Shown here: positions 453 through 63,053 of the stretch, piece after piece | Numbering within the stretch: position 1 is the first letter of the stretch | Layout: each line of letters opens with the position of its first letter | Assembly (NCBI GenBank): GCA_025774935.1 | Contig: JALGZK010000001.1 | Coordinates: 66,331-130,330, forward strand | Origin: a bacterium | Lineage (GTDB): Bacteria; Joyebacterota; Joyebacteria; Joyebacterales; Joyebacteraceae | Reading direction: 5' to 3' | DNA: 64,000 bases | Position numbers and translations under genes: made by a program | The notes under the pieces: generated by a model | Seen by the model: the letters and a program-made list of their open reading frames with translations, nothing else | Told to the model about the DNA's origin: nothing | The model's database searches: none

Positions 453-497
453 CCGGGCGTCCTGCGTGTAGAGATGACAGAAGGGAGGTTCGCGCAG

Positions 498-890: not shown

Positions 891-899
891 GACGTCGTC

Positions 900-2125: not shown

Positions 2126-2144
2126 GCGCGTCGCACCGCCCGAG

Positions 2145-2771
2145 ATGGGGGACGGGATGCACTGCCCGAGCTGCAGCGTCGAATTCCGGGACCACGTGAG
2201 GAAGTGTCCCGCGTGCCGAGTGCTCCTCGTCAACGGTCCGCCGCCGAAGCGTCCGAGCCGGGGGCAGGGGATCACCTACGAGGACCTCGTCCGTATGGTG
2301 CGGGGGAACGACGGCCGCCTCTCGGTTCGTCTTACGACGACGGACGTGGCTCGTAACGAGACGTGGCGGTTCGCCTACAGGGGCTTCGGGCACGCGTGGG
2401 CGAGGACGATGGAGGGTGCCAGGGAGGGCGTGCCGGTGGTTTTGAGGGCCGCGGCCGTCGGCGTGAAGGAGCACTCGTGGTGGGTCTACTTCGGGTTCGG
2501 CTACGCGTGGGTGGAGAGGATGGAGGGTCTCGTCGGTGGGAACCCGATTGTCCTGACCGCGACGGACGTAGGTGAGGAACGGGAGATGGGCTTCCCGTAT
2601 CTTGGGTACGGGTACGCATGGACGAAGGAGATGGCGGGGGACTGCGGAGGCGACCTCCGCGCGGCGCTCAAGGTGACCGATGTCGGCAGGCAGAGGCGAG
2701 CGGCGTTTCCGTGCAGGGGCCACGGTCAGGCGTGGGCGAACGCGGCCGTGCTCACGCTCACGGCCCGGTGA
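2145..2771 (+). CDS. Hypothetical protein: zinc ribbon plus four ~37-aa aromatic repeats
   Basis: CPSC...CPAC; repeated L..(T)DV......F.Y.G(F/Y)G.AW...M.G units. Confidence 0.7.
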   Translation: MGDGMHCPSCSVEFRDHVRKCPACRVLLVNGPPPKRPSRGQGITYEDLVRMVRGNDGRLSVRLTTTDVARNETWRFAYRGFGHAWARTMEGAREGVPVVLRAAAVGVKEHSWWVYFGFGYAWVERMEGLVGGNPIVLTATDVGEEREMGFPYLGYGYAWTKEMAGDCGGDLRAALKVTDVGRQRRAAFPCRGHGQAWANAAVLTLTAR

Positions 2772-3064
2772 CGTCCTACACCGCATGTCGTCCGAGCTGA
2801 CGGGCGCTGCACTTGACCGCTCGCGAACCAGCAGCTGGGCGGGCTGCCCCTCCGGTCCGTGACATTGGCCTGCCCCTTCGATCGGTGTTCTTCCTTCTCT
2901 TCGGTGCGATCCACTCCGTGTTCTTCCCACTCAGCTACCCGTACGCCCCGCCCCCCCGTCTCTTCCGTCGACTTCCGCCCTCAAGTATGATAGCTACTGA
3001 GTGGCGGCCTGATTCCGGCCGTCGGTCGGGATGTGGAATCCAATCCACCAATACGGGGAACTGC

Positions 3065-3361
3065 ATGGACACGCGGAAGCGATCGTGGGCGAAATCGCTC
3101 ACCTGGCGCATCCTGGGGATCGTACTCCTGGGACTCATCACCTACATGATCACGAAGGACTGGAAGGAGATGGCCGTCATCACGGTCGTCTTCCACGGGA
3201 TACGCGTCGTCCTGTACTACGCTCACGAGCGGATCTGGGAGAAGATCGACTGGGGAAGGGTGAAACACCCGCTCGCGAGCCTCCCGGTGGATCGGGAGCT
3301 CACGCCCGAGGACATGGACACGGTCAGGGAGCAGCTCAAGTCGCTCGGTTACATCGACTGA
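3065..3361 (+). CDS. DUF2061 membrane protein
   Basis: MDTRKRSWAKSLTWR...YYAHERIWEKIDWG signature. Confidence 0.85.
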   Translation: MDTRKRSWAKSLTWRILGIVLLGLITYMITKDWKEMAVITVVFHGIRVVLYYAHERIWEKIDWGRVKHPLASLPVDRELTPEDMDTVREQLKSLGYID

Positions 3362-3418
3362 GCCGGCAGGGGGAGGCGCGCCCGCGGTCCACGCGGGTGA
3401 AGGCAAAGGAGATCTGTC

Positions 3419-3646
3419 GTGCACGTCAAGATCAGCTACTGCGTTCCTTGAGGATTCGAGGAGCGCGCCGTCCGTGTGGCGGCGGTTCTCGAGACGGAGA
3501 CGGGGATCAGGGCAGAGGTTGTCGAGGGGCCGCACGGGTCGTTCGACGTCGCGGTCGACGGGGAGGTCGTGTACTCGAGGGCGAAGACCGGCGAGCTTCC
3601 GAGCTCAAAGGAGGTCGTCGCTCTCGTGCGTGCGAGGGAGGGCTAG
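3419..3646 (+). CDS. SelW/SelT/SelH (Rdx) family selenoprotein, CxxU motif; TGA 3449-3451 read as Sec
   Basis: AAGGAG RBS, GTG start; translation MHVKISYCVPUGFEERAVRVAAVLETETGIRAEVVEGPHGSFDVAVDGEVVYSRAKTGELP...; not in the ORF track. Confidence 0.9.
3452..3490 (+). promoter_or_regulatory. Putative bacterial SECIS hairpin for the Rdx selenoprotein
   Basis: GCCGTC(3467-3472)/loop CGTGT/GGCGGC(3478-3483); lower stem including GAG 3458-3460 paired with CTC 3488-3490. Confidence 0.75.
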
Positions 3647-3665
3647 GCGCGGAGGTCCGGACGCG

Positions 3666-4412
3666 ATGACCCACGGGACGAAGGCCCCGCTCAAGCTCTA
3701 CCGCGAGCTGGCCACGTGGTGGCCGGTGCTCTCGAACCCCTCCGACTATGCCGACGAGGCGGAGTTCGCACGTAAGCTCTTCACCGAGTCGTGCGACGAG
3801 CTGCCGCGCACCATCCTCGAACTGGGATGCGGAGGCGGGAACAACGCCTCCCATCTGAAGAAGCAGTTCGAGATGACCCTCACGGACATTTCCGCCGAGA
3901 TGCTCGAGGTGAGCCGCTCGCTCAATCCCGAGTGCGAGCACGTGCAGGGCGACATGCGGACTCTCAGGCTCGGTCGCGTCTTCGACGGCGTCTTCGTGCA
4001 CGATGCCGTTACGTACATGACGAGCGAGGGCGATCTCGGGAGCGCGATCGCGACGGCTCACGTTCATTGCCGTCCGGGCGGCGCTGCGGTCTTCATGCCC
4101 GATCACGTGCGGGAGACCTTCCACCCCGACACGAGCCACGGCGGTCACGACCGCGGCGAGCGTGCCCTTCGCTACCTCGAGTGGAGCTGGGACCCCGACC
4201 CGGACGACACCACTTACGTCACTGACATGGTCTACGTGCTCCGCGAGAAGAACGGACGGGCGCGGATAGAGCACGACCGTCACGTCTGCGGGCTCTTCCC
4301 GCGGGACACGTGGCTGCGGCTGCTCGAGGAGGTGGGATTCGAGCCGCGGGTCATCATAGACCAGTACGAGCGCGACGTTTTCGTCGCGAGGAGACCCCAT
4401 GAAGGAGCTTGA
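3666..4412 (+). CDS. Class I SAM-dependent methyltransferase
   Basis: ILELGCGGG motif I; QGDMR; GGAGG RBS. Confidence 0.9.
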   Translation: MTHGTKAPLKLYRELATWWPVLSNPSDYADEAEFARKLFTESCDELPRTILELGCGGGNNASHLKKQFEMTLTDISAEMLEVSRSLNPECEHVQGDMRTLRLGRVFDGVFVHDAVTYMTSEGDLGSAIATAHVHCRPGGAAVFMPDHVRETFHPDTSHGGHDRGERALRYLEWSWDPDPDDTTYVTDMVYVLREKNGRARIEHDRHVCGLFPRDTWLRLLEEVGFEPRVIIDQYERDVFVARRPHEGA

Positions 4413-5358
4413 CGGGCTGAGATGGGTGCCGAGGTGGACCTCGCACATGGGCTGTCTGAAGGGCTGCCTCGACTACCTCGGCGTCGAGGTGAGCGACGCG
4501 TGGCTCTACGGCGCTACCGGCCATGCGTTCGTCATCAACATGCACGAGGTCGTGTGTCCGAGCGGGCCGACGGCCTGGCACACGGGGATGATCCACACGC
4601 TAGCGAAGAACGTGGGATGCGAGGGCGAGGTGCTCTTCGCGACCACTCGGGAGCCCGGGTTCGCGGAAGCAAAGGAGCGCGCGTGGGAGACGTTCCGGTC
4701 CGCGATCGACGAGGGGACTCCGTGCTACGGGTGGGAGCTGGCCGTGCCGGAGTTCTACGTTCTGTACGGATACGACGAGGTGGGCTATCACTTCTCGGGC
4801 TGCGCGCACGACGAGGGCGCCGGACCGAAGCCGTGGCAGGAGCTCGGCGACACGGGCATCGGCTGTCTCGAGCTCGTGAGCGTTCGGGAGGGGACTCCGG
4901 CCGACGACGCGGCGACCGTCCGCGATGCCCTCGCGTTCGCGCTGGAGCACGCAGGGCGTCCCTCGAAGTGGATATTCCCCGGCTACGCGTCGGGGCTCGG
5001 GGCCTACGACACCTGGGTCCGCTCGGTTGAGGCGGGGACCGCTGTCGCGGTCGGAATGGGATACAACTCCCAGGTGTGGGCCGAGTGTCGTATGTATGGT
5101 GTGGGGTTTCTCGAGGAGGCGGGCGAGCGGCTGTCTGCCGGCCTCCGACCGCTCCTCGGAGAGGCGGCCCGCCGCTACAGGGAGGCCGCGGAGTCGCTGC
5201 GCGAGGTGGCTGCCACCTACCCCTTCACGCCGGGGCTGTCCGAGGACGCCATCGGCGTGGACGCGCGCACGGAGGCGGTGGTCGTCGCGCTCAGGAGGGC
5301 GCGCGAGGCGGAGGCCGCAGGGCTCGACTCGCTCGCCGCGATCGTCGCGAGCATCTGA
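4399..5358 (+). CDS. Hypothetical protein (BtrH N-terminal/papain-like candidate)
   Basis: Long ORF overlapping the upstream stop; MGCLKGCLDYLG...WLYGATGHAF, YVLYGYD. Confidence 0.6.
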   Translation: MKELDGLRWVPRWTSHMGCLKGCLDYLGVEVSDAWLYGATGHAFVINMHEVVCPSGPTAWHTGMIHTLAKNVGCEGEVLFATTREPGFAEAKERAWETFRSAIDEGTPCYGWELAVPEFYVLYGYDEVGYHFSGCAHDEGAGPKPWQELGDTGIGCLELVSVREGTPADDAATVRDALAFALEHAGRPSKWIFPGYASGLGAYDTWVRSVEAGTAVAVGMGYNSQVWAECRMYGVGFLEEAGERLSAGLRPLLGEAARRYREAAESLREVAATYPFTPGLSEDAIGVDARTEAVVVALRRAREAEAAGLDSLAAIVASI

Positions 5359-5368
5359 GAGGGGAGTG

Positions 5369-6226
5369 ATGGCGCAGGAGCCGCGGCTGACCTTGAGCAT
5401 CGCCCACGCCGCCGCGTCGCGTCTGGCCTCCGGCCGTCCGGAGGCGAAGTTCCGCGACGGCTATCCGGCGTACGTCCGTGACATCGACGACAACCTGATC
5501 CCGGGCGTCACGCGGTCCGACTTCGCGGACGACCTCCTTGGGGGCGACGGCATCGAGTTCGCGGAGATCGGCGGACAGCCGCCGCGATTCAGCGCCGCGC
5601 ACTCGTCGGCCGCGATCGCCGTCAACACGTTCGCGCCGTTCAGGCGTTCTCCGGAGAGCCTCTCGTTCGCCGGACACTCCGGGTTCACGCTCGCCAGGTT
5701 CGGGAAGCGTCTGAACACGGGTCTCACGGGGTCTCCGCCGTCGCTCGCGTTCTACGCCGCAGGGCCGTCGGGAATCGTGGCGGTAGAGGGGGTCTTCACG
5801 GAGCCTCTCGTCCAGAAGTTCGCGAGCTTCACGCTCGACTACGACCGGGCGATGGCCGACATCGACGATCCTCCCTGGAACGCCGTGTACTCCTCGCTGC
5901 AGCGGGAGCCGAAGCGGTTCAGGAAGCTGGACGCCGCCCAGCTCGTGATGCACTACCTCGGGCTCCACTACAGCCTCCAGGACGAACCGGCCCCGAAGAC
6001 GCTCGTGTATCTGTACTGGGAGCCGACGAACGCGGAGGACGTGGAGGAGTTCCGGGATCACCGATACGAGGTGCTGACGTTCTCTGTAGCCGTCTCGGGC
6101 AGCGCCGTTCCGTTCGTGAGCATGAGCTATCCGGAGTTGTGGGAGCGCTGGGAGGACGAAGCGAGCTGGTCGGGAGCGGCCGAGCACGTTGCACGCCTGA
6201 GGGAGCGATACCTGTTTGCGTTGTGA
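5369..6226 (+). CDS. PGN_0703-like PD-(D/E)xK nuclease-fold protein, apparently degenerate active site
   Basis: AAHSSAAIAVNTFAPF, VAVEGVFTEP, LDAAQLVMHYLGL, LVYLYWEP motifs. Confidence 0.6.
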   Translation: MAQEPRLTLSIAHAAASRLASGRPEAKFRDGYPAYVRDIDDNLIPGVTRSDFADDLLGGDGIEFAEIGGQPPRFSAAHSSAAIAVNTFAPFRRSPESLSFAGHSGFTLARFGKRLNTGLTGSPPSLAFYAAGPSGIVAVEGVFTEPLVQKFASFTLDYDRAMADIDDPPWNAVYSSLQREPKRFRKLDAAQLVMHYLGLHYSLQDEPAPKTLVYLYWEPTNAEDVEEFRDHRYEVLTFSVAVSGSAVPFVSMSYPELWERWEDEASWSGAAEHVARLRERYLFAL

Positions 6227-6311
6227 GCGGCGCGGGCGCACCGCAGACGGCCGGCAGGGTGCAGGATTCGCGGTCGTGTCGGGTACGCGACCGCATCGGG
6301 GAGGGAGCGCA

Positions 6312-6821
6312 ATGACACGATGGCTCGTCGTGCCGGTGATCGTCCTCTGCATGCTCGCCGGCTGCCGGGAGGCCGCGATCGAGGCTCCCGGACCCCTGGA
6401 AGGGTCGTGGAAGATCGTGGAGATCAGGGTCGTCTCGCAGCGAGGGGAGTACACCGACCCCGAGCCCGAGCCGGGCCTGTTCATCTTCGGGAAAGAACAC
6501 TACAGCATGATCTGGATGCCGTTCGGCGAGCCGCTCCTCGACTTCGCTGAGATCTGGAGGCCGACCGACGAGGAGAAGCTCACGAGCTGGAACTCGATCG
6601 TCGTGAACACGGGGACCTACACGTACACCGACTCCACGGTGACGACGTATCCGCTCGTGGCGAAGACGCCCGAGTTCGTGGGCGGCTTCGCGGTCTACGA
6701 CTACCGCGTGGTGGCAGACACGCTCTGGATGGAGATGACCGACTGCATGTCGTCGGGCGACGTGCAGGACCCGGGCATCGGGGTCTACACGATGCCGCTC
6801 AAACTCATCCGCGCGGAGTGA
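6312..6821 (+). CDS. Lipoprotein, lipocalin-like beta-barrel
   Basis: Lipobox LAGC; LEGSWKIV; NTGTYTY. Confidence 0.7.
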   Translation: MTRWLVVPVIVLCMLAGCREAAIEAPGPLEGSWKIVEIRVVSQRGEYTDPEPEPGLFIFGKEHYSMIWMPFGEPLLDFAEIWRPTDEEKLTSWNSIVVNTGTYTYTDSTVTTYPLVAKTPEFVGGFAVYDYRVVADTLWMEMTDCMSSGDVQDPGIGVYTMPLKLIRAE

Positions 6822-7162
6822 GGGGGACACACTTGAGTTGTGACTACCTCTACAGGATCCGGCCGACGCGGACGTCGCTCCTGGCCGAGGGGGCGACTGC
6901 CGAGGAGGACCGCGTCATCACAGAGCACTTCGAGTATCTGAAAGGACTCACCCGCGAACGTGTCGTCCTTCTTGCCGGGCGGACACTCAACAGGGACGAC
7001 ACCGGATTCGGCATCGTGATCTTCCGGGCCGAGTCCGAGGGCGACGCGCGCCGCGTCATGGAGAACGACCCGGCCGTCCAGGCGGGCGTGTTCCGCGCCG
7101 AGCTCTTCCCGTACGGCGTGGCTCTCATCGGCGACGAGCTGTGCGACCGGGCCCGCGGCTAG
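6818..7162 (+). CDS. YciI family protein
   Basis: EHFEYL...LAGRT...GIVIFRAESE...MENDPAV. Confidence 0.8.
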   Translation: MRGTHLSCDYLYRIRPTRTSLLAEGATAEEDRVITEHFEYLKGLTRERVVLLAGRTLNRDDTGFGIVIFRAESEGDARRVMENDPAVQAGVFRAELFPYGVALIGDELCDRARG

Positions 7163-7210
7163 CGCGGTCGCGAGGCTCGGCATGGCCCTCGCTCGGGCCA
7201 GGAGGCGAAA

Positions 7211-7426
7211 GTGGCACAACGGCACACACCGACGTTCCTGATGTGGCTCTACTTCGTGCTCGCGATCGGATCGCCGATGACCGCGGGAATCTACCTCGGG
7301 AAGATCGCGGCCGGCGCCGGCGGCGGGACGATGGACGTGGCGCGCGTCGTTATCTTCGGTCTTCTGGGCACCTTCTGGGCGCTCATGTACGGGAACGCCC
7401 GGAAGGAGAGGGGCTCGCAGGCCTGA
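7211..7426 (+). CDS. Small two-TM membrane protein
   Basis: AGGAGG RBS before GTG; two hydrophobic segments. Confidence 0.6.
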   Translation: MAQRHTPTFLMWLYFVLAIGSPMTAGIYLGKIAAGAGGGTMDVARVVIFGLLGTFWALMYGNARKERGSQA

Positions 7427-7471
7427 CGCTCCGCCCATGGCCGCGCGATTGCGGAGGGAGGGGAATCGTCC

Positions 7472-8293
7472 GTGGGGAAGACCCGGAAGAGGCGGGTCCG
7501 TCTCGTCCACTGGAACGAGGCCGAGAGCAGGGAGCGCGCCGGAGCGCTGCGCGCGGCGGGGTACGTCGTCGACCGCTCGCCAGTCGACCGCGAGGCACTC
7601 AAGGCACTGGCCGCTCGGCCGCCGGACGCGATCGTGATCGACCTCACGCGTGCACCTTCCCAGGGCCGCGACCTCGGGCTCTTCCTCAGGAAGCAGAAGT
7701 CGACGCGAGGCATCCCACTCGTCTTCGCCGGCGGGGAACCGGACAAGGTCACGCGGGTGAAGGAGCTCTTGCCTGACGCTGCGTTCACGACCTGGGCTGG
7801 CGTGGGCGCGCGTCTCCGCAAGGCGGTGACGGCGAAACCGACGGCGCCGGTCGTGCCGAACTCGACCTTCGACGCTTACGCCGGAACGCCGCTCCTCAAG
7901 AAGCTGGGCGTGAAGGAGGGCACCGTCGTCGCTCTCGTCGGCGCGCCGGATGGATTCGAGAAGGCGCTCGGAACGCTTCCCGACGACGCGGTAGTACGGC
8001 GGGGCGCGCGCGGGCGTCCGGACCTCGCGATCTGGTTCGTGAGGTCGCGGAAGGAGCTCGAGGGACGCGTCGAACGGATGAAGGCCTTCGGGTGGCGACA
8101 CGCCCTCTGGATCGTCTGGCCGAAGAAGGCCTCGGGGATCGCGAGCGACGTCTCACAGAAGGTGGTGAGGGAGACGGGGCTCGGCGCGGGGATCGTGGAC
8201 TACAAGGTGTGCTCCGTCGACGAGACGTGGTCGGGACTCAAGTTCGCGAGACGCAAGGCGAACAGCAGAGTGACGAGACTCAAGTCTGGGTGA
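7472..8293 (+). CDS. Receiver-like domain fused to DUF3052-like domain
   Basis: N-terminal PPDAIVIDL...G.DL...LR....TRGIPLVF; C-terminal PLLKKLG...LWIVWPKKASG...DYKVCSVDETWSGLKF. Confidence 0.7.
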   Translation: MGKTRKRRVRLVHWNEAESRERAGALRAAGYVVDRSPVDREALKALAARPPDAIVIDLTRAPSQGRDLGLFLRKQKSTRGIPLVFAGGEPDKVTRVKELLPDAAFTTWAGVGARLRKAVTAKPTAPVVPNSTFDAYAGTPLLKKLGVKEGTVVALVGAPDGFEKALGTLPDDAVVRRGARGRPDLAIWFVRSRKELEGRVERMKAFGWRHALWIVWPKKASGIASDVSQKVVRETGLGAGIVDYKVCSVDETWSGLKFARRKANSRVTRLKSG

Positions 8294-8358
8294 GACCGGG
8301 GGAACTTGATCGGGCGAAGAGCGCGGGCTGGCGCCGCCCGACGGACAGGGAGGTTCAC

Positions 8359-9264
8359 GTGGGACGACAGCCGACTCCTGACAGCGTGTGGCGGATCGAG
8401 TTCGCGAAGGAGGTCATCCGGCCCTATGTGGAGCAGCCGGGCATCAAGATGATCGTCCTCTCCGGCTCGCCGCCGAAAGGACTCTCAGACCAGTACTCGG
8501 ATCTCGATCTCATCGTGTTCTGGGACGCCATCGACGGCGACTGGCTCGAGGCAGAGCCGCTCTCCGGCATCGAGTGCGACCGGAGGTACTTCCGGAAGAT
8601 GGGCGAGGCCGACCTCTATCTCGAGGGGTACTACTTCGGGAACCTGAAGGTCGACTTCGGTCACTCGACTCTCGCGGACTGGAAGGACACCGTCGACGGC
8701 GTGCTCGAGCGCCACGAGTTCGACGCGGACACCTTCGACGCGATCGCGGGGTTCAGAACGTCGCTTCCCCTCGTCGGCGAGGAACTCGCTCTCGACTGGA
8801 AGAGGCGGCTCGAGGAGTACCCGGATGAGATTCGAACGAAGGTCGTCGGCCAGCACATGAGGATGTTCGTTCCGGGCTATCTCCTCAACCAGGCGCTCAA
8901 GCGCGGCGACGTTCTCGCGTACTACGACGGACTGTGCCTGATGTTCAAGAACATGCTGAACATCCTCGCGGGCCTGAACCGGGTGTACATGTCGACCGGC
9001 GAGCCTCGGTGGATCGAGTACTACCTCGGGCTGATGCCCATCCGCCCGGAGAACGCGTGGGAGCGAATGCGCACGGCGCTCGAGTCGGACGGGGAGACGG
9101 CCGTCGAGATTCTCGAGGAGCTCACGGAGGATATCCTCGGGCTCGTCGCGACGCACATGCCGGAGGTCGCCGACCGCGTGGAGCGCATCCGCACGATGCG
9201 TCCGCAGATGGCGGTCGAGGGCACGCCGGACAGACCGGAGATGAGGGAGAGGACGAAGGCGTGA
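8359..9264 (+). CDS. Nucleotidyltransferase-fold protein with helical C-terminal domain
   Basis: LSGSPPKGLSDQYSDLDL (GS...DxD); GGAGG RBS. Confidence 0.7.
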   Translation: MGRQPTPDSVWRIEFAKEVIRPYVEQPGIKMIVLSGSPPKGLSDQYSDLDLIVFWDAIDGDWLEAEPLSGIECDRRYFRKMGEADLYLEGYYFGNLKVDFGHSTLADWKDTVDGVLERHEFDADTFDAIAGFRTSLPLVGEELALDWKRRLEEYPDEIRTKVVGQHMRMFVPGYLLNQALKRGDVLAYYDGLCLMFKNMLNILAGLNRVYMSTGEPRWIEYYLGLMPIRPENAWERMRTALESDGETAVEILEELTEDILGLVATHMPEVADRVERIRTMRPQMAVEGTPDRPEMRERTKA

Positions 9265-14287: not shown

Positions 14288-14620
14288 ATGGACGACAAGT
14301 GCAGCGAGATGTTCCACGCGCTGGCGGACAAGACGAGGCTCAGGATCCTCGAGCTCCTCAAGAAGGAAGAGGAGCTCTGCGTGACGGACATCGCGAAGCA
14401 CTTCGAGATGAAGCAGCCGTCGATCTCGCACCACCTGGACGTGATGAAGAGGGCGGGGCTCGTGACGAGCGACAAGCGGGGACGGGAGGTGTACTACCGG
14501 TTCAACCCTGACGCGATCCTGGACTGCTGCGGGAATCAGCTGAGGGTGCTCGACATCGATATCGTCTCGGTTGGGAAGGACGGGTTCAAGGTGACGAGCA
14601 GGGGCAAGAAGAAGGGGTAG
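14288..14620 (+). CDS. ArsR/SmtB family metalloregulator
   Basis: FHALADKTRLRILELL, ELCVTDI, SISHHL, KRGREVYY; C-terminal DCCG. Confidence 0.92.
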   Translation: MDDKCSEMFHALADKTRLRILELLKKEEELCVTDIAKHFEMKQPSISHHLDVMKRAGLVTSDKRGREVYYRFNPDAILDCCGNQLRVLDIDIVSVGKDGFKVTSRGKKKG

Positions 14621-27500: not shown

Positions 27501-27914
27501 TTGGCGAACACGGAAGACCGCACAGACAAGAAGCGGGCGAAGTACGAAGCGAAGGCGGAGAAGGCACGCGCCAAGGCCGACCTCAAGGCGGCCGAGGCGC
27601 GCGAGCGCGCCCGCGTCGAGGAGACCAGGGTCCTCGCGGAGGTCGGCGGCAGGGGCCTGCCGAGAGGTGTCGGGATCGCTCTCGAGAGGCGCGGCGGGAC
27701 GTCGCAGCTCGTCGTCTCCGGCCTGAGCGAGGAAGCGGTCGACCGGCTCGTGCCCGAGATCACGAAGGAGCTCCTGATCGGAGCCGCGGCCGAGCGGAGC
27801 CGCCTCCGCGCCGGGGCGATGAGGTTCGTTCGCGAGGGGGTCGTCCCGACGATCGTCAAGGTGGTAGCCGGACTGATCGTCGGCTACCTCGTGATCCGCT
27901 TCGGGCTCAGGTAA
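27501..27914 (+). CDS. Hypothetical protein with C-terminal TM
   Basis: GAGG RBS and TTG start; charged helix, then TM. Confidence 0.55.
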   Translation: MANTEDRTDKKRAKYEAKAEKARAKADLKAAEARERARVEETRVLAEVGGRGLPRGVGIALERRGGTSQLVVSGLSEEAVDRLVPEITKELLIGAAAERSRLRAGAMRFVREGVVPTIVKVVAGLIVGYLVIRFGLR

Positions 27915-28011
27915 CCGTTCGGCGCGGGCAGCGAGGGCAACGGCTTCCGGTTCCGCCTCGCGGCGCGGCTCGAGCCACCGCGCAGGGGCGACTTGTGCGG
28001 CGGTGATTCCG

Positions 28012-28020
28012 TGCTATACT
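28012..28020 (+). promoter_or_regulatory. Extended -10 promoter candidate
   Basis: TGCTATACT upstream of the M20 peptidase. Confidence 0.45.
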
Positions 28021-28071
28021 CCGCGGCACGATTTCGGCAGAGACACGTGGACGCCAATGCAGGGAGAGGAC

Positions 28072-29451
28072 ATGACAGACAGGCGGGCGGCGGCGGTCGA
28101 GCACGCGCGAGCGAACAGCGACAGGATCCTGGAGGAGCTTTCGGACTTCCTCTCGATCCCGTCGATCTCGAACGACCCTACGAGTGAGTCCGACATCGAT
28201 GGAGCGGCCAATTGGATGGCGGATCGTCTCCGTGCTCTGGGGCTCGACGACGTCGGCGTGCTTCCCACGGGCGGCAACCCCGTCGTCTACGGTGAGAGCC
28301 TCTCCGCCGGTGATTCCGCGCCCACGGTCCTCGTCTACGGACACTACGACGTGCAGAGCCCGTCCCCGCTCAAAGGCTGGGACAGCAAGCCCTTCCAGGC
28401 GACCGTCCGGGGCGAGAAGCTCTACGCGCGCGGCGCCTCCGACAACAAGGGCCAGATCATGGCCTGCGTCGCGGCGGTCGAGGCTGCGGCGAGCGCAGGG
28501 CCGCTCCCGGTCAACGTCAGGTTCCTGATTGAGGGAGAAGAGGAGATCGGGTCTGTCAACCTTCTGGACTTCCTGCGGGAGAACAAGTCACGGCTCGGAG
28601 CCGACGTCGTCCTGAACCCCGACGCGGGCATGCTCGGTGCGGACAGGCCGACTGTCTACTACGGTCTGCGCGGGATGTACGTGTGCACCCTCCGCGTGTC
28701 CGGCCCCTCGCGGGACCTCCATTCGGGTGGGTACGGCGGCGTCGTCCACAACCCGATCCACGCGCTCAGCAAGGTCATTGCCGGCATGCACGACTGCGAG
28801 CGCCGGGTGGCGCTTCCGTCCTTCTACGACAGCGTGCGGGACATGACGCCGGAGGAGCGCGCCGAGATGGCGGCGCTTCCGAGGGGAGACGCGTCGTATC
28901 TGGAACAGTCAGGAGTGCCCGAGCTCTGGGGGGAGCGGGACTACATCGCGGCCGAGAGGGAGGGCGCGCGTCCGGCGCTCGACGTCATCAGAATCTCGGG
29001 CGGCAGCACGAAGTCGGCCATCCCGATTGCCGCGGAGGCGATCCTCACGGTGCGGCTCGTTCCCGACCAGTCGCCCGACGAGGTGCACGAACAGCTCCTC
29101 CGCTACCTCGAGAGCCACGTACCACCGACGGTGAACTGGGAGGTGCTCGACTGGTCCGGGTTCCCGGCGTCGCTCACGGACCGGAACTCCGCGGCGGTGC
29201 AGTCGCTGAGCGCAGCGATGGAGACGGTGTGGGGACGGAAGCCCGTCTACTACAGGAGCGGTGGGAGCATCGCCGCGGTCGGCCAGATGCAGAGCGCGCT
29301 GGGTGTCGACTCCCTCCTGACGGGATTCTCGCTCCCGGACGACCACGTGCACGGACCGAACGAGAGGATCCATCTGCCGACGTGGCGGCGCGGAATCGAG
29401 GCCCTCGTCCACTTCCTCTATAATATGGCCGACGGGGCCGCCGCTCAGTAG
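28072..29451 (+). CDS. M20 family dipeptidase
   Basis: YGHYDVQ, ARGASDNKG, EGEEEIGS, DLHSG, HGPNE. Confidence 0.92.
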   Translation: MTDRRAAAVEHARANSDRILEELSDFLSIPSISNDPTSESDIDGAANWMADRLRALGLDDVGVLPTGGNPVVYGESLSAGDSAPTVLVYGHYDVQSPSPLKGWDSKPFQATVRGEKLYARGASDNKGQIMACVAAVEAAASAGPLPVNVRFLIEGEEEIGSVNLLDFLRENKSRLGADVVLNPDAGMLGADRPTVYYGLRGMYVCTLRVSGPSRDLHSGGYGGVVHNPIHALSKVIAGMHDCERRVALPSFYDSVRDMTPEERAEMAALPRGDASYLEQSGVPELWGERDYIAAEREGARPALDVIRISGGSTKSAIPIAAEAILTVRLVPDQSPDEVHEQLLRYLESHVPPTVNWEVLDWSGFPASLTDRNSAAVQSLSAAMETVWGRKPVYYRSGGSIAAVGQMQSALGVDSLLTGFSLPDDHVHGPNERIHLPTWRRGIEALVHFLYNMADGAAAQ

Positions 29452-29469
29452 CCTCGGGAGGAGGCTCGC

Positions 29470-30009
29470 GTGCGCCTCGAACTGCTCGCTGCGACGGATG
29501 CCGACTACGAGGTGGTGAGGAACCTCGTACCGCTCTACGTCCACGACATCTCCGAGTGGATGGGGTGGGACTGCCCGGAGTCGGGGTACTTCGGCGGTTG
29601 CGACGATCTGCCGCTGTACTGGGGAATGCCGCCCACGGACCCGCGCTACAGGTGGCCCGGCAGCTGGCGGGGCTTTCCGTTCATGATCCGGGTGGACGGC
29701 CGGCTCGCCGGCTTCGCGCTCGTTCGCAGGCTCCAGGAGGGAGCCCCCCCCGTCTACGAGATCGCCGAGTTCTTCGTCCTCAGGAAGTACCGCCGGAGCG
29801 GAGTGGGTCGAGAGGCTGCGCACGGGATCTTCGACACCCTCGAGGGCAGTTGGGAGGTCAGGGAACTCCTGGGCAACAGGCCGGCGCAGGACTTCTGGAG
29901 GAAGGTCATCTCGGAGTACACGCACGGCGCCTTCGAGGAGACCGTGGAGCCGGCCGTAACGGGTCCCTTCGAGATGCTGACGCAGAGGTTTACGAGCACC
30001 GGAAGTTGA
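29470..30009 (+). CDS. GNAT N-acetyltransferase
   Basis: EIAEFFVLRKYRRSGVG; N.PAQ.FW. Confidence 0.85.
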   Translation: MRLELLAATDADYEVVRNLVPLYVHDISEWMGWDCPESGYFGGCDDLPLYWGMPPTDPRYRWPGSWRGFPFMIRVDGRLAGFALVRRLQEGAPPVYEIAEFFVLRKYRRSGVGREAAHGIFDTLEGSWEVRELLGNRPAQDFWRKVISEYTHGAFEETVEPAVTGPFEMLTQRFTSTGS

Positions 30010-30058
30010 ACGCGAGCATCGGAAGTGAGACGGGCGGGCAAGCGAAGCGGGAGGCGAC

Positions 30059-30454
30059 GTGACGGGAATCGACGCGCAGATCACGTTCTGCTACACGCTC
30101 GATCTCGCAGGCACGGCGAGGTTCTACGAGGACGTGCTCGGACTGCGGCTCGCGCTCGACCAGGGCGGCTGCCGCATCTACCGCGTCGCCGGAAGCGCGT
30201 ACCTCGGCTTCTGTGAGAGGGAGGACGCGGCGCGTCCGGCGGGAGTGCTCTTGACGCTCGTGACCGACGACGTCGACGGCTGGCACGAGAGGCTCGCGTC
30301 CGCGGGCGTCACGTTCGACAGGCCACCCGCGCACAACCCGGAGTACGCGATCTACCACTGCTTCTGCCGCGACCCGAACGGCTACGTGATCGAGATCCAG
30401 CGTTTCGACGATCCGGCCTGGGACGGATGCGGAAGGGAGGCCGGCGGGGAGTAG
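30059..30454 (+). CDS. VOC/glyoxalase family protein
   Basis: FYEDVLGL...DDVD.W...RDPNGYVIEI. Confidence 0.9.
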   Translation: MTGIDAQITFCYTLDLAGTARFYEDVLGLRLALDQGGCRIYRVAGSAYLGFCEREDAARPAGVLLTLVTDDVDGWHERLASAGVTFDRPPAHNPEYAIYHCFCRDPNGYVIEIQRFDDPAWDGCGREAGGE

Positions 30455-30458
30455 GGCG

Positions 30459-31484
30459 ATGGAGAGCGGAACGGCGAGAGAGGTGATGGGCGAGGCGACG
30501 AAGCCCGTCGTCCGGCACGCGACCTCCACGATGACCGCCGCGGACTGGTGGGACCACCTCCTTGCGCGGTGGTCGATCGACCGACAGGGACACCGGGTGG
30601 AGCCGGGACTCTACGCCCTCGGGACCCCGGACAGGGCGGCCCCCGTCTTCGTCACCGCGAACTACACGCTGAGCTTCGACGCTCTCAGGACGGCGGTCGG
30701 GGACATCGACTGCTACATCGTCGTCCTCGACACGCTCGGGGTCAACGTCTGGTGCGCGGCCGGGAAGGGGACGTTCGGGACCGACGAGCTCGTCCGCAGG
30801 GTCGAGGCGACCGGACTCGCCGACGTGGTGGACCACAGGCGACTCATCGTGCCACAGCTCGGCGCGACCGGGGTCGCAGCACACGAGGTCACGAGGAGGA
30901 CAGGCTTCCGCGTGGAGTACGGACCCGTGCGCGCCGCGGACATCCCGGAGTACCTGGAGCTCGGCGAGGCGACGGCGGCGATGCGGCGGATGACCTTCCC
31001 GCTCAAGGACCGCCTGGTGCTCATCCCCGTGGACCTCGTGAAGGCGCTTCCGTTCGGGCTCGGGGCGGCGATCCTGCTCTACTTCCTCGGGGGCCCCCTT
31101 CTCGCCTGGGCTGCCCTCACGGCGGTTCTGGCGGGAGCCGTCCTCTTCCCGATCCTCCTCCCGTGGCTCCCGACCCCCAATTTCAGCACGAAGGGGCTCA
31201 TTCTCGGGGTCGTCGCGGCGGTGCCGTTTCTGGTAGGCTGGTTGGGTGGGCGGCAGGAACTCGGGCCGTGGTTCCTCTACGGGGGTGCCCTTGCGCTCCT
31301 GCTCACGATGCCCCCGGTGACCGCCTACATAGCCCTGAACTTCACCGGCTCGACGACGTACACCTCGAAGACCGGCGTCGAGAGGGAGATACGGAGGTAC
31401 ATCCCCGCCATGGTCTGGACGTTCGGGGCGGGCCTCGTGCTCGCGATCGTCCTCGCCGTGGCGGCGAAGGTCGGAGGGCGATGA
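30459..31484 (+). CDS. hgcA: Mercury methylation corrinoid protein HgcA
   Basis: Cap-helix motif GVNVWCAAGKGTFGT; VTANY; PQLGATGV; C-terminal TM domain ending NFTGSTTYTS. Confidence 0.95.
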   Translation: MESGTAREVMGEATKPVVRHATSTMTAADWWDHLLARWSIDRQGHRVEPGLYALGTPDRAAPVFVTANYTLSFDALRTAVGDIDCYIVVLDTLGVNVWCAAGKGTFGTDELVRRVEATGLADVVDHRRLIVPQLGATGVAAHEVTRRTGFRVEYGPVRAADIPEYLELGEATAAMRRMTFPLKDRLVLIPVDLVKALPFGLGAAILLYFLGGPLLAWAALTAVLAGAVLFPILLPWLPTPNFSTKGLILGVVAAVPFLVGWLGGRQELGPWFLYGGALALLLTMPPVTAYIALNFTGSTTYTSKTGVEREIRRYIPAMVWTFGAGLVLAIVLAVAAKVGGR

Positions 31485-31903
31485 TGTACGACGCCTACGC
31501 GACGAATACACTCGAATACGACCCGACGCTCTGCGCCGGCTGCTGGACGTGCATGGCCGTCTGTCCGCACGAGGTCTTCGCGCGGGAGAACGGCGTCGTC
31601 CGGGTCGCCCACGCGCCTTCGTGCATGGAGTGCGGCGCGTGCCAGCTGAACTGCCCGACCGGGGCGCTCAAGGTAGACAGCGGGGTGGGCTGCGCGTACG
31701 CCATCATCTGGTCCGCTCTCACCGGGCGGGATGACCTGAGCTGCTGCGGGGACAGGGCGCCCAGCTCGCGCGGAGGAGACGCAGAGGCCGCTCAGGAGCA
31801 GTCCCGGCCCGCAGGGTGCTGCGGAGAGCCGGTGCAGGAGAGCGCGGCTTCGTCCCCGGAGGGGGCGAAGCCGGGCGACGATGGCGACTGCTGCTGCGGG
31901 TGA
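31481..31903 (+). CDS. hgcB: Mercury methylation ferredoxin HgcB with extended Cys-rich tail
   Basis: ATGA overlap with hgcA; CAGCWTCMAVCPH, CMECGACQLNCP, SGVGCA; tail CCG...CCG...CCCG. Confidence 0.93.
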   Translation: MMYDAYATNTLEYDPTLCAGCWTCMAVCPHEVFARENGVVRVAHAPSCMECGACQLNCPTGALKVDSGVGCAYAIIWSALTGRDDLSCCGDRAPSSRGGDAEAAQEQSRPAGCCGEPVQESAASSPEGAKPGDDGDCCCG

Positions 31904-31988
31904 CGAACTGGATTCGATGAATGTGAGTCGGAAGAGCCGACGCCGCGGGGGGACGATCGTCTCCCGTCGGGCTTCACTGGGAGGTGTC

Positions 31989-32450
31989 ATGAGATCGACG
32001 CGCACCGGAAGGGCGCTGGGGTGCCTGCTCGTGCTCGCACTGGCCGCCGTCCCGCTCGGAGGATGCTCGGAGAAGAACGGCGGCGAGCCGACGACGGAGA
32101 CTGTCCAGACCGAGAAGAAGGGCGTCTCACGGATAACGCCTGAGGAAGTGAAGGCGCGGATGGACGGCGGGGAGACGTTCGTGTTCGTCGACTCACGGAG
32201 CGCGCAGTCCTGGAAGGGATCGACGAAGAAGCTCCCGGGAGCCATCCGTGTTCCCTCCAGCGAGGTTGCAGAGCATCTCGACGAGATCCCCAGGGAGGGC
32301 GTTGTCGTCGTCTACTGCACGTGACACAACGAGGGATCCAGCGCCCGTGTGGCGCTCGAGCTCATGGGGGAAGGCTGGGAGAACGCCTACGCGCTCAGGG
32401 GCGGGTACGGGGCCTGGGTCGAGGGAGGACTCCCGGTGGAGGACAAGTAG
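31989..32450 (+). CDS. Rhodanese-domain lipoprotein selenoprotein, CxU motif; TGA 32322-32324 read as Sec
   Basis: Lipobox LGGC; VDSR, LPGAIRVP, VVVYCTUHNEGSSARVALELMGEGWENAYALRGGYGAWVEGGLPVE; the rhodanese C-terminal signature lies after the TGA. Confidence 0.9.
32325..32363 (+). promoter_or_regulatory. Putative SECIS hairpin for the rhodanese selenoprotein
   Basis: AGCGCC(32340-32345)/loop CGTGT/GGCGCT(32351-32356); GAG 32331-32333 can pair with CTC 32361-32363. Confidence 0.75.
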
Positions 32451-32525
32451 GGAAGGCCCGGGCAGGACGGCGACGGAAGGACGGAGACGGGTCGAGCGGG
32501 TCGGGCCGGATGATGGGAGAGCACC

Positions 32526-33605
32526 ATGTCGGACGACGTCTACAGCAAGCTCGCGGAGCGTCTCGACGAGATCCCGAACGGGTTCACGCGCACCGAGAGC
32601 GGAATCGAGCTCAGGCTCCTCGCGAAGATGTACGAGCCCCTCGAAGCGGAGACCGCCTCGGCCATGCGCCTCACGCCTGAGCCTCCCGCTGCGATCGGCG
32701 AGCGAGTGGGACTCGATGCCGAGGCGGCAGCCGAACGGCTCGCGGCCATGAGGAAGCGTGGGCTGATTCGCGCGTCCCGGGGGGACGCCGGTCCGCTCTA
32801 CGGACTCATGCCGTTCGCGGTGGGCGTCTACGAGGACCAGCTCGGGCGTATGGATGAGGAGATGGCCTCGCTCTTCGAGCAGTACTACCAGGAGTCGAGG
32901 GGCGGCATCATGACGCAGGGCGAGCCGGCCCTTCACCGCGTAATCCCCGTCGAGCAGTCGGTCCCCGTCGACATCGAGGTCTTCCCATACGAGCGCGCCA
33001 CGGAGATGCTGGAGCGCGCGCGCGCGTGGGGCGTCCGTGACTGCATCTGCCGCGTCCAACAGAAGAAGATCGGGAAGGGCTGTGACAGCCCCATCGACAA
33101 CTGCATCGTCTTCGCGCCCGTTCCGGGCGTGTTCGACAAGAGCGAGGAGATACGCGTCCTCTCGAAAGAGGAAGCCCTCGGCATCCTCGCCGAGGCGGCG
33201 GACGCCGGGCTCGTGCACTCCACGTCGAACCAGCAGGACCAGATTCACTACATCTGCAACTGCTGCACGTGCTGCTGCGGAATCCTCCGTGGGGTGGCGG
33301 AGTTCGCGATCCCGACCGCCGTGGCGCGTTCGGACTTCCAGATGACCGTTGACGACGGGGCGTGCGTCGCGTGTGGCGCCTGCCTCGACCGGTGTCGCTT
33401 CGGGGCCATGAGCGTCGACGATGTGTGCGCCGTGGACGAGACTCGCTGCGTCGGGTGCGGCGTCTGCGTGACGGCGTGTCCGGCGGACGCGCTCGTGCTC
33501 AGGCGGCGGCCCGAGGGACAGGTCGACGCACCACCGGCGAACGGACGCGCGTGGATGGCGGAGCGTGCGAAGAACCGCGGCAAGTCGATGGAAGGTATCC
33601 TCTAG
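32526..33605 (+). CDS. 4Fe-4S cluster-binding protein with N-terminal HTH-like region
   Basis: CICR, ICNCCTCCCGIL, two CxxCxxCxxxC motifs. Confidence 0.85.
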   Translation: MSDDVYSKLAERLDEIPNGFTRTESGIELRLLAKMYEPLEAETASAMRLTPEPPAAIGERVGLDAEAAAERLAAMRKRGLIRASRGDAGPLYGLMPFAVGVYEDQLGRMDEEMASLFEQYYQESRGGIMTQGEPALHRVIPVEQSVPVDIEVFPYERATEMLERARAWGVRDCICRVQQKKIGKGCDSPIDNCIVFAPVPGVFDKSEEIRVLSKEEALGILAEAADAGLVHSTSNQQDQIHYICNCCTCCCGILRGVAEFAIPTAVARSDFQMTVDDGACVACGACLDRCRFGAMSVDDVCAVDETRCVGCGVCVTACPADALVLRRRPEGQVDAPPANGRAWMAERAKNRGKSMEGIL

Positions 33606-33716
33606 GACGAACACGCGCCGGGCACCCGGCGCGATACTGGACTCGAGACGAGAGAGCATCAAGAGCGCTGCACCGAATGAGAAGCGACGGTTCGCATCCG
33701 GCCGAGGAGGTTGGCG

Positions 33717-33905
33717 GTGCTGAATCTCATGAAGGTGTTGGTAGTGCTCGCCGCGCTGGCGTTCGTCATCGCGCTCATCGGATCGCTCACGGGGTTCTTC
33801 TTCTTGAACGTGAGCCCCGAGGGCTACTCGAGAGCGTGCACGAACCTCGCGCTCATCGCGATCGCGCTCAAGTTCGCGTTCATCGCGGACAAGAAGCCCG
33901 TCTGA
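33717..33905 (+). CDS. Small membrane protein
   Basis: GAGGAGG RBS; two TM segments. Confidence 0.65.
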   Translation: MLNLMKVLVVLAALAFVIALIGSLTGFFFLNVSPEGYSRACTNLALIAIALKFAFIADKKPV

Positions 33906-34450: not shown

Positions 34451-34924
34451 GTGGCCGACAAGGCGTTCCAGGACTTCTACCCGGGAGACTTCGCGCAGTG
34501 CTACGGCTGCGGGAGGTTGAACGAGGACGGTCTTCAGCTCAAGAGCTACTGGGACGGCGGCGAGACCGTGTGCCGATTCACGCCGCGCCCGTACCACACG
34601 GCGGTTCCCGGGTATGTGTACGGTGGCCTCATCGCATCCCTCATCGACTGCCACTGCACCGGTACGGCGGCCGCCGCGGCGGCGCGTGCCGAGGACCGCG
34701 CGATCGACTCCGATCCCCCGTTCCGGTTCGTGACCGCGTCGCTCAAGGTCGACTACCTGAAGCCCACGCCGCTCGGTCCAGAGCTGGAGGTCCGGGCGAG
34801 GGTCGACGAGATGAAGGGGCGGAAGGTCGTCATGAGCGCCAGCGTGTCCGCCGAGGGTGAGGTCTGCGCGCGGGGTGAGGTCGTGGCGATCCTCATCCCG
34901 GGGAGCCTCGCCGGGGGCGAATAG
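34451..34924 (+). CDS. PaaI/hotdog-fold thioesterase
   Basis: CYGCG.LN..GL; VYGGLIASLIDCH; VTASLKVDYLKPTP. Confidence 0.88.
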   Translation: MADKAFQDFYPGDFAQCYGCGRLNEDGLQLKSYWDGGETVCRFTPRPYHTAVPGYVYGGLIASLIDCHCTGTAAAAAARAEDRAIDSDPPFRFVTASLKVDYLKPTPLGPELEVRARVDEMKGRKVVMSASVSAEGEVCARGEVVAILIPGSLAGGE

Positions 34925-34961
34925 AACCGCTGCGAGCGCGCACCGTTACGGAGAGGGAGGT

Positions 34962-35303
34962 GTGTCTCTGAGGACCGTGATCATCTTGAAAAGCGAGACG
35001 TTCGGCGACGCGCCCGAGGAACTGGGCAGCAAGCTCATGGGATCGTTCCTGCGGAAGCTCTGGGCGTCCGATGAGAAGCCAGACGCGATCGTCTTCTACG
35101 GCACGGGCGTCAAGCTCCTCGTGGTCGGCTCGCACGTAATGGACGCGCTCGACGGCCTCTTCGACGCGGGCGTCGACCTCGTCGCATGCGGGACGTGCGC
35201 CGGGTACTTCAAGATCAGGGACGCGATAGCGGTAGGACGCGTGAGCGACATGCCCGAGATCATCTCGATCGTCATGGGGGCCGATAAGGTCGTGACGATG
35301 TAG
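34962..35303 (+). CDS. DsrE-like protein resembling the C-terminal domain of selenium metabolism protein YedF
   Basis: ELG.KLM.SFL; PDAIVFYGTGVKL; GVDLVACGTC; AVGRVSDM. Confidence 0.75.
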   Translation: MSLRTVIILKSETFGDAPEELGSKLMGSFLRKLWASDEKPDAIVFYGTGVKLLVVGSHVMDALDGLFDAGVDLVACGTCAGYFKIRDAIAVGRVSDMPEIISIVMGADKVVTM

Positions 35304-38804: not shown

Positions 38805-39212
38805 ATGGCTTCGATCAGAAAGGCGCTGCTCTTCGGATTCCTCGTGTGGCTCATCCCGTTCGTTGTCGCGTTCGCGGTCTTCCCGTTCCGTGAGGCCAAC
38901 CGCGCGCTCTTCGAATCGATCATGGCGGTGATCCTCGCCGTGGCGACGGTCGTGTTCGGGCTCCTCTACATGCGGGGAGTGACGAGGCGGTTCGTCGTCG
39001 AGGGGATCCTGATCGGCGCCATCTGGTACGCGATGAGCGTCGCGATCGACGCCCCGCTCATGCTGCTGGGCGGTCCGATGAAGATGGGCTTCGGGGAGTA
39101 CATGGCCGACATCGGACTCACGTACCTCATGATCCCGGCGGTCACGATAGGCCTCGGTTTCGCCGCAGCGAGGGCCGTGCGGGCGGCCTCGCGTGAGGCG
39201 GCGGCCGACTGA
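38805..39212 (+). CDS. Hypothetical four-TM membrane protein
   Basis: GGAGG RBS; GFLVWLIPF...YMADIGLTYL. Confidence 0.75.
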   Translation: MASIRKALLFGFLVWLIPFVVAFAVFPFREANRALFESIMAVILAVATVVFGLLYMRGVTRRFVVEGILIGAIWYAMSVAIDAPLMLLGGPMKMGFGEYMADIGLTYLMIPAVTIGLGFAAARAVRAASREAAAD

Positions 39213-39249
39213 GTCGCCGGACGCTGTGGGTCAGGCGTTTGGAGAACAC

Positions 39250-39990
39250 GTGGCGTTCTATTCCGACTTCGCTGAGTACTACGACGCCGTCTTCCCACTG
39301 GAGGAGGACGTGCTCGCATACCTCGCGAGCTACCTCGCGAGCGGGAGCCGGCGCGTCCTCGACGTCGGGTGCGGGACGGGCGATTTCTGCGGGCGGTTCG
39401 CGGCGATGGGGCTGGAGGCGGTCGGGGTCGACGTCGACCCGAAGATGATCGAGGCGGCGCGCAGGCGGTATCCGGATGCGACCTTCGAGATCATGGACAT
39501 GCTCGAGGTCGGGAGGCTGGAACCTCCCTTCGACATGGCCTACTGCATCGGGAACGTCGCAGCGCACATCCCGCAGGACGCGCTCCCGCGGTTCCTAGCG
39601 GACGTGGCCGCGCTCCTCGGCCCCGGTTCTCCCTGGCTCCTTCAGACAGTGAACTGGGACTACGTCCTCGGACTCGAGACGTTCGAGTTCCCCGACACGC
39701 ACGTGGAGATGCCGCTCGCGGAAGGCGCGAAGGACGCGCGCGAGGTGGTGTTCTCGAGACGCTACGAGAGCATCGCCGAGGAGCGACTCCACTTCCTGAC
39801 GAGGCTCACGGAGGACGGCGAGACGGTGTTCGAGGGGGACGTCTGGCTTCATCCCGTGAGACGCGACGAGTACGTCCGAATCCACGAGGGTTCGGGCTTC
39901 ACCCTCCTCGGTCACTTCGCCAACTTCCGGCGGGACCCCTTCGTGTCTGACCGGCAGTCTTCGAGCGTGTACGCGTTCCGCCGGCTCTGA
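39250..39990 (+). CDS. Class I SAM-dependent methyltransferase
   Basis: VLDVGCGTG; CIGN. Confidence 0.88.
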   Translation: MAFYSDFAEYYDAVFPLEEDVLAYLASYLASGSRRVLDVGCGTGDFCGRFAAMGLEAVGVDVDPKMIEAARRRYPDATFEIMDMLEVGRLEPPFDMAYCIGNVAAHIPQDALPRFLADVAALLGPGSPWLLQTVNWDYVLGLETFEFPDTHVEMPLAEGAKDAREVVFSRRYESIAEERLHFLTRLTEDGETVFEGDVWLHPVRRDEYVRIHEGSGFTLLGHFANFRRDPFVSDRQSSSVYAFRRL

Positions 39991-60630: not shown

Positions 60631-63052
<2,422 letters not shown>

Positions 63053-63053
63053 G

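Follow-up and report, generated by a model that had tools for sequence, protein, structure and literature searches.

A complete hgcAB pair, marker of predicted mercury methylation, in a genome assigned to uncultured Candidatus Eisenbacteria

Mercury builds up in food webs in the form of methylmercury, and the gene pair hgcAB, already known from many uncultured phyla, is the accepted marker of the organisms that make this compound. According to the accessible text of PMC11588087, HgcAB as purified combines a membrane-associated cobalamin methyltransferase and a ferredoxin carrying two [4Fe-4S] clusters; its cofactor is methylated by S-adenosylmethionine, a conserved cysteine gives Co-thiolate ligation, and in Pseudodesulfovibrio mercurii ND132 the pair makes up about 0.0004% of total protein. 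Cys93 of HgcA and Cys73 of HgcB are essential, full activity needs at least one C-terminal cysteine, and it has been proposed that the cysteines of the HgcB tail fetch Hg(II) and pass CH3Hg+ to Cys73 (accessible sections of PMC7305189). Here we analyse 64 kb of contig JALGZK010000001.1 (positions 66,331 to 130,330), called the window below, in which a sequence-only reading had recognised a complete hgcAB pair at 30459-31903. Every element described there is present, and both genes are intact. We read the locus, with a probability of roughly 85%, as encoding a complete mercury methyltransferase of the canonical HgcAB type, its host being an uncultured member of Candidatus Eisenbacteria. It is an ordinary instance of a known system, with the same architecture and motifs, recognised by automatic annotation, in a poorly studied host.

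The HgcA and HgcB proteins

Against the curated NCBIfam model HgcA_corrinoid (NF040863), a profile check that had been suggested beforehand, HgcA scores 425.1 bits (E 1.7e-127) over profile positions 2-323 of 325, which is 150 bits above the cut-off of 275, and a genome-wide scan with this profile returned the same single locus. The model of the archaeal ACDS gamma subunit reaches 76.6 bits, below its cut-off of 306, and the sole Pfam domain seen in HgcA is CdhD, at residues 43-164 (52.5 bits). A sequence search of the PDB returned no solved HgcA and only corrinoid iron-sulfur protein (CFeSP) chains, among them 2h9a and 4c1n (E 1.6e-11, residues 44-166).

The cap-helix motif of HgcA, worded N(V/I)WCA(A/G)GK, is present as NVWCAAGK at residues 96-103. 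Among 24 aligned HgcAs, N96, V97, W98, C99, A100, G102 and K103 are invariant, as is the whole cap-helix block N96-T108 save position 101. Cys99, the equivalent of Cys93 of strain ND132, is the predicted Co-thiolate ligand. A selenocysteine considered for the HgcA of another locus (L022), in which the motif was missing, was rejected, as the sequence there reads NVWCAAGE and contains no TGA.

The transmembrane domain noticed in the translation is found by hydropathy and structure prediction alike. The C-terminal half of HgcA is hydrophobic, with five Kyte-Doolittle regions between residues 186 and 335 (the fourth weak, at 1.58), and AlphaFold2 (mean predicted local distance difference test score, pLDDT, 77.1; predicted template modelling score 0.66) places an alpha/beta domain before about residue 176 and long helices at 182-211, 213-236, 242-264, 270-295 and 304-337. 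The best PDB match of this model by Foldseek is 9a0b_A, an integrative HgcAB model (40% identity, 338 columns, E 1.3e-18). It is followed by five CFeSP large-subunit chains which match the corrinoid domain only (E 2e-7 to 2e-5), with a root-mean-square deviation of about 3 A over 126-134 residues.

The stop codon of hgcA (TGA, 31482-31484) shares bases with the ATG of hgcB (31481-31483), and this ATGA overlap, read directly in the sequence, is translational coupling of the two genes, as had been claimed. GGAGGG lies 2-7 nt 5′ of the hgcB start, and a second in-frame hgcB ATG is found at 31484. HgcB scores 101.1 bits against HgcB_ferredoxin (NF040864, cut-off 99) over profile positions 2-88 of 93, and Pfam sees generic Fer4 domains only. 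The two [4Fe-4S] motifs of the CxxCxxCxxxCP type that had been reported are CAGCWTCMAVCP at residues 18-29 (Cys18/21/24/28) and CMECGACQLNCP at residues 48-59 (Cys48/51/54/58), the second containing CMECGAC. All eight cluster cysteines are invariant in an alignment of 27 HgcBs, in which Cys71 (within GVGCA) and one tail cysteine also occupy invariant or nearly invariant columns. By its position about 12 residues past the second motif, Cys71 is the putative counterpart of ND132 Cys73.

The tail of HgcB bears three cysteine clusters instead of one, namely CC (88-89), CC (113-114) and CCC (137-139). Past CMECGAC it counts 86 residues, and across the other loci compared the range is 35-103: it is exceeded only in L037, a Chloroflexota locus (103), and in G002 of the same genus (88), G001 and G003 follow with 83 and 74, and all remaining loci have at most 66. 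In total length, its 140 residues are second to the 164 of L037 among 85 rows, four of which repeat earlier loci. A long tail with multiple CC clusters is common, among the loci compared, only to G001, G002, G003 and L037. The tail length and cysteine number of HgcB are known to vary (accessible sections of PMC7305189), so the tail described here is the long end of a known range and not a new feature. The extreme of that range, the 164-residue HgcB of the L037 MAG (metagenome-assembled genome; 4585-5076), has about ten CC or C-C clusters in its 103-residue tail.

A model of the complex between HgcA and HgcB residues 1-95 scores 0.70, as against 0.00 for the best of three controls, this score being the model's own confidence and its calibration only approximate because our own alignments were used; a score of 0.70 was attained in 116 of 157 solved complexes and in 2 of 215 mismatched pairs. 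The runs share at least 80% of their contacts, the pLDDT of the partner is at least 76, and the interface includes HgcA 95-103, which belong to the cap-helix region, and HgcB 48-59, 66-76 and 87-90. The model supports binding between the two proteins.

Counterparts of all residues named as important in the described system are present: Cys99 in HgcA, and Cys71, Cys88/89 and those beyond in HgcB. By analogy, we infer the catalytic cycle of P. mercurii ND132 HgcAB for this pair as well. HgcA would sit in the inner membrane through its five helices, holding the corrinoid on a Rossmann-like domain in the cytoplasm, where Cys99 in the cap helix would serve as lower Co ligand. HgcB, supplied by coupled translation, would dock on this domain and, by way of its two [4Fe-4S] clusters, deliver the low-potential electrons that yield Co(I). 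This would accept a methyl group, donated by S-adenosylmethionine in the case of the purified ND132 enzyme, and become methyl-Co(III). Hg(II) held by the cysteines of the flexible HgcB tail would then reach the cofactor and leave as CH3Hg+, probably via Cys71.

Function, host and inheritance

Several points weigh against this interpretation. Cofactor loading, expression and methylation activity of this HgcAB are extrapolated from the described systems, and mercury methylation may or may not be what HgcAB natively does, in any member of the family. HgcB passes its curated cut-off by 2 bits only, the cap-helix stretch 94-103 of HgcA has a pLDDT below 50 in the AlphaFold2 model, which does not show it as a helix, and the complex score carries the reservation given with it. 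No cobQ, cobS or cobalamin riboswitch match was found in the 96%-complete draft genome, and the genome scan returned only weak BtuB-like TonB receptors (best 84.8 bits, cut-off 599.7). The support of 94 for the HgcA clade described below was obtained by a quick search and carries no star. No cultured member of the lineage turned up in the searches made.

The genome has five B12-binding-domain hits above the Pfam cut-off and so uses corrinoids, which, given that no cobQ or cobS was found, must be imported by some uptake route. The organism is probably a corrinoid auxotroph depending on uptake, bearing in mind that absence from a draft is not proof. A true hgcAB pair could still be silent or inactive, that is, untranscribed or free of corrinoid, and its host no methylator in nature. 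We consider this unlikely, since the ratios of nonsynonymous to synonymous substitution (dN/dS) argue for maintained function. Against relatives, these amount to 0.11-0.30 for hgcA and 0.14-0.25 for the hgcB core, which is purifying selection, and to about 0.5 for the hgcB tail; the rows for the upstream VOC gene versus L090 and for the downstream 359-residue Fe-S protein versus L088 were ignored as short chance alignments of 40-45% identity. The pair and its neighbours are moreover conserved in four genomes, and the other B12-domain proteins mean that corrinoids must reach the cell. What speaks for silence is the missing cobQ, cobS and riboswitch, the very low share of HgcAB in the protein of ND132 (about 0.0004%, accessible text of PMC11588087) and the finding of no sigma-70-like promoter on either strand of 27900-33800, in a scan which covers one promoter type only. 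Three terminator-like sites in the same interval, all on the minus strand with 1.5 expected by chance, are uninformative. There was no RNA dataset among 20 matching sequencing runs, all of which fall below 0.2 of the sampled words and have no bearing on habitat or expression.

The host genome is a MAG of 3.24 Mb (40 contigs, 67% GC), with an estimated completeness of 96.3% and contamination of 1.3%. The window, at 66.8% GC, contains the markers rplU, rpmA, pyrG, kdsB (60631-61386) and kdsA (62775-63890), in agreement with the high-GC diderm proposed by the sequence-only reading, and a diderm with Kdo is a fair reading of these genes. Seven PyrG relatives at 73-83% identity bear an organism name, six of them Candidatus Eisenbacteria and one "bacterium"; beyond these, identity is at most 68% and the phyla are mixed. 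The nearest named PyrG relatives thus place the host in uncultured Candidatus Eisenbacteria, which also bears out the suggestion of a little-studied methylator group, methylators in this phylum not being discussed in the searchable main texts.

In the host phylum, represented by 31 species-level genomes all coded as one family, nine genomes have an HgcA match, seven of them over the cut-off and two as fragments at contig ends. With at least 90% completeness and at most 5% contamination, the count is 4 of 20 genomes, and by genus it is four of eight. The seven same-family HgcAs form one clade (SH-aLRT 94) in a quick maximum-likelihood tree of 85 HgcA cores, which is unrooted (midpoint for drawing only) and excludes L082, the same DNA as L002, as well as the fragments L088-L090. 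This clade is nested in a large branch that also contains Chloroflexota, methanogens and others, in the company of MAGs titled Methanospirillum, Methanolobus and Desulfitobacterium, genera which include tested methylators. The pattern fits a single gain of hgcA in the family with later losses.

A search of 5.8 billion proteins returned thousands of HgcA relatives of similar length. The closest are two short-contig proteins (85% and 81% identity), followed by a plateau at 60-67%, where the few proteins with a name are annotated as HgcA or "carbon monoxide dehydrogenase" and come from Anaerolineae/Chloroflexi, "bacterium" and Candidatus Eisenbacteria MAGs. Outside the family, the nearest named HgcAs belong to Anaerolineae/Chloroflexi, at 61-64% identity, and disagreement between HgcA and species phylogenies, visible across phyla in our tree too, is well known; in the distant genera g3 and g7, hgcAB also has a different neighbourhood. 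A mis-binned contig or a recent transfer from Chloroflexota or methanogens, either of which would make the locus uninformative on Eisenbacteria, would account for these observations, and is nevertheless very improbable. The pair lies mid-window in 64 kb of uniform plus-strand genes rich in GC at third codon positions (GC3), on a long contig (listed at 478,590 bp) that also bears the pyrG whose top named relatives are Eisenbacteria, and the HgcAs of seven family genomes cluster. HgcA is 67% identical to that of the same-genus G001, in line with flanking genes at 59-79%, hence not unusually divergent, and its inheritance within the host family looks vertical from these comparisons.

The thought that HgcA might be a non-methylating HgcA-like paralogue, of the fused HgcAB-like or the CFeSP/CdhD type, is scarcely credible: the corrinoid domain is homologous to CFeSP (Pfam CdhD 52.5 bits; 2h9a E 1.6e-11) and the HgcAB_like model matches HgcA at 201.5 bits, but that score is under its cut-off of 285 while the HgcA equivalog is exceeded by 150 bits, the likeness to CFeSP is limited to residues 43-166, the protein has both the cap-helix cysteine and a membrane domain of five helices, the two genes are separate, and the tree puts the protein among the HgcAs of the three titled genera named above. 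Grouping with such HgcA-like or CdhE paralogues, the outcome against which the sequence-only reading had set its claim, was accordingly not what we found, the CdhD match itself covering residues 43-164 only.

Genes around hgcAB

Coordinates of the pair and of its immediate neighbours are collected in Table 1. The VOC gene ends 4 nt before the ATG of hgcA, which is preceded by GGGGAG, and the rhodanese gene starts 85 nt 3′ of hgcB.

Table 1. Features of the hgcAB locus, in window coordinates
Feature	Position	Strand	Basis or remark
hgcA, 341-aa corrinoid protein	30459-31484	+	NF040863, Pfam CdhD, AlphaFold2, Foldseek
NVWCAAGK codons (HgcA residues 96-103)	30744-30767	+	Cys99 = predicted Co-thiolate ligand
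hgcB, 140-aa ferredoxin	31481-31903	+	NF040864, two [4Fe-4S] motifs
ATGA, overlap of hgcA stop and hgcB start	31481-31484	+	raw sequence
HgcB extended Cys-rich tail, residues 88-140	31742-31900	+	acidic/Pro/Ser-rich spacers between Cys clusters
glyoxalase/VOC-family gene, 131 aa	30059-30454	+	Pfam Glyoxalase, 52 bits
rhodanese-family lipoprotein, in-frame TGA 32322-32324	31989-32450	+	NF041203, 105.1 bits (cut-off 115)
Fe-S/helix-turn-helix (HTH) protein, 359 aa	32526-33605	+	Pfam Fer4, NirdL-like HTH

The order M20 dipeptidase, GNAT, VOC, hgcA, hgcB and 359-residue Fe-S protein is kept in G001, G002 (as fragments) and G003. The VOC gene stands directly 5′ of hgcA in G000, G001, G002 and G003, and the rhodanese gene is located between hgcB and the Fe-S gene in the three genomes of genus g1 only. 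Neither the VOC nor the rhodanese neighbour occurs in any of the hgcAB loci from other phyla; a protein weakly related to the Fe-S protein is encoded at one of them, from Thermoplasmata. In genera g3 and g7, hgcAB is flanked by radA-ispDF on one side and phosphodiesterase-gltX on the other (L092/G010, L093/G026 and L094/G009), and the HgcAs of these loci cluster with that of the window despite the different neighbours.

The most plausible start of the rhodanese gene, at 31989, follows GGAGG, and the product has a lipoprotein-type signal peptide ending in LGGC. Its in-frame TGA (VVYCTU context) is present in all three genomes of the genus (the window, G001 and G002), and the codons past it are under purifying selection (dN/dS 0.25-0.48). 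The read-through product, with U scored as C, reaches 105.1 bits against the (seleno)protein model NF041203 (cut-off 115) over positions 14-126 of 126. The genome encodes selenocysteine machinery, namely two tRNA-SeC predictions by ARAGORN, SelA (533 bits) and SelB (345 bits). Because the TGA is conserved, the family match extends through it and the machinery is present, selenocysteine is the most likely reading of this codon, no SECIS signal contributing: the fold of the 70 nt that start at 32316 is no more stable than that of shuffled sequences (z -0.22), with no significant hairpin after the TGA. Under ordinary gene calling this open reading frame would end at 32324. Three genes past the rhodanese, and syntenic in G001, lies a YedF-like DsrE-fold "selenium metabolism" protein (34857-35303, plus strand; 99.7 bits, cut-off 110).

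The 359-residue protein is HTH-like at its N-terminus and Cys-rich in the middle (CICR..., YICNCCTCCCG), and its C-terminal part has two [4Fe-4S] motifs. It belongs to a family of Fe-S proteins of about 350 residues that is widespread in anaerobes and for which the protein search matched only unnamed clusters. No ArsR-type regulator adjoins hgcAB in the 64-kb window, whose only ArsR/SmtB metalloregulator (14288-14620, plus strand; 103.7 bits) lies 16 kb upstream of hgcA.

Elsewhere, a class-I methyltransferase 7 kb 3′ of hgcB (39193-39990, plus strand) matches the CpaM model weakly (45 bits, cut-off 180) and is probably unrelated. Nearly all GC3-rich open reading frames of the window are on the plus strand, a strong strand bias, and its first 9 kb (12-9264) gave no NCBIfam match at E 1e-10.

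One may speculate that in this branch of Eisenbacteria hgcAB is the core of a conserved module made of VOC, HgcA, triple-CC HgcB, putative selenocysteine rhodanese and HTH/Fe-S protein, in which the neighbours join the reaction. In the periplasm, the exported rhodanese would deal with ligands of the Hg-thiol, Hg-selenol or sulfane kind, while electron supply to HgcAB or regulation of the pair would fall to the Fe-S/HTH protein, and the VOC protein would act on an organometal product. If true, this would be a first genetic handle on the entry of Hg to HgcAB and the exit of methylmercury, and we hold it unlikely. The rhodanese, VOC and Fe-S neighbours, the long HgcB tail and the missing corrinoid-synthesis matches are leads, not results.

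Significance and comparison with known systems

The locus adds a well-supported candidate lineage to the methylators. An NCBI record (P0089) already bears the title [quoted passage not shown], at 62% identity. The searchable main texts contain no link between Eisenbacteria and hgcAB, an entry in the supplements of PMC7438021 or in tables of the Hg-MATE type being possible, and the supplement of PMC10083202 has no "Eisen" entry. In the accessible literature, Candidatus Eisenbacteria exceed 5% of the communities at two rice-paddy sites (PMC10349881), and MAGs also come from Arctic lake and mangrove sediments. With the gene in 9 of the 31 phylum genomes, surveys without Eisenbacteria references could mis-assign these hgcA sequences, for example to Chloroflexota, which hold the next-nearest HgcAs. 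On the delivery of Hg and the native role of HgcAB, modest leads come from the long HgcB tail with its many cysteines and from the conserved neighbours.

Compared with HgcAB of P. mercurii (Desulfovibrio desulfuricans) ND132, on which 9a0b_A, 40% identical to our HgcA model in Foldseek, is based, the locus has the same two adjacent genes, the same corrinoid domain with a cap-helix cysteine followed by five transmembrane helices, and an HgcB with the same two CxxCxxCxxxCP motifs, a cysteine about 12 residues past the second motif and C-terminal cysteines (accessible sections of PMC7305189). It differs in the host phylum and in HgcB, which has 10.2 kDa and two C-terminal cysteines (Cys94, Cys95) in ND132 but 140 residues and seven cysteines past Cys71 here. 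The surroundings differ as well: an ArsR-type regulator is adjacent in ND132 and 16 kb off here, where the neighbours are the VOC protein, the putative selenocysteine rhodanese and the Fe-S/HTH protein.

The CFeSP large subunit AcsC/CdhE of the Wood-Ljungdahl pathway (2h9a, 2ycl, 4djd) shares a homologous corrinoid-binding fold, and about a third of HgcA aligns with it; it lacks the cap-helix cysteine and the membrane domain and has an N-terminal [4Fe-4S] domain of its own (accessible sections of PMC7305189). The HgcAB-like fusion (NF043039) is homologous over both parts (HgcA 201.5 bits, HgcB 46.9 bits), yet both scores stay below 285 and the genes here are separate, each passing its own equivalog model. 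The HgcAB of Anaerolineae/Chloroflexota, methanogens and other Eisenbacteria MAGs are 61-67% identical near full length and share the same large branch of the tree, the nearest outside the genus being only about 66% identical.

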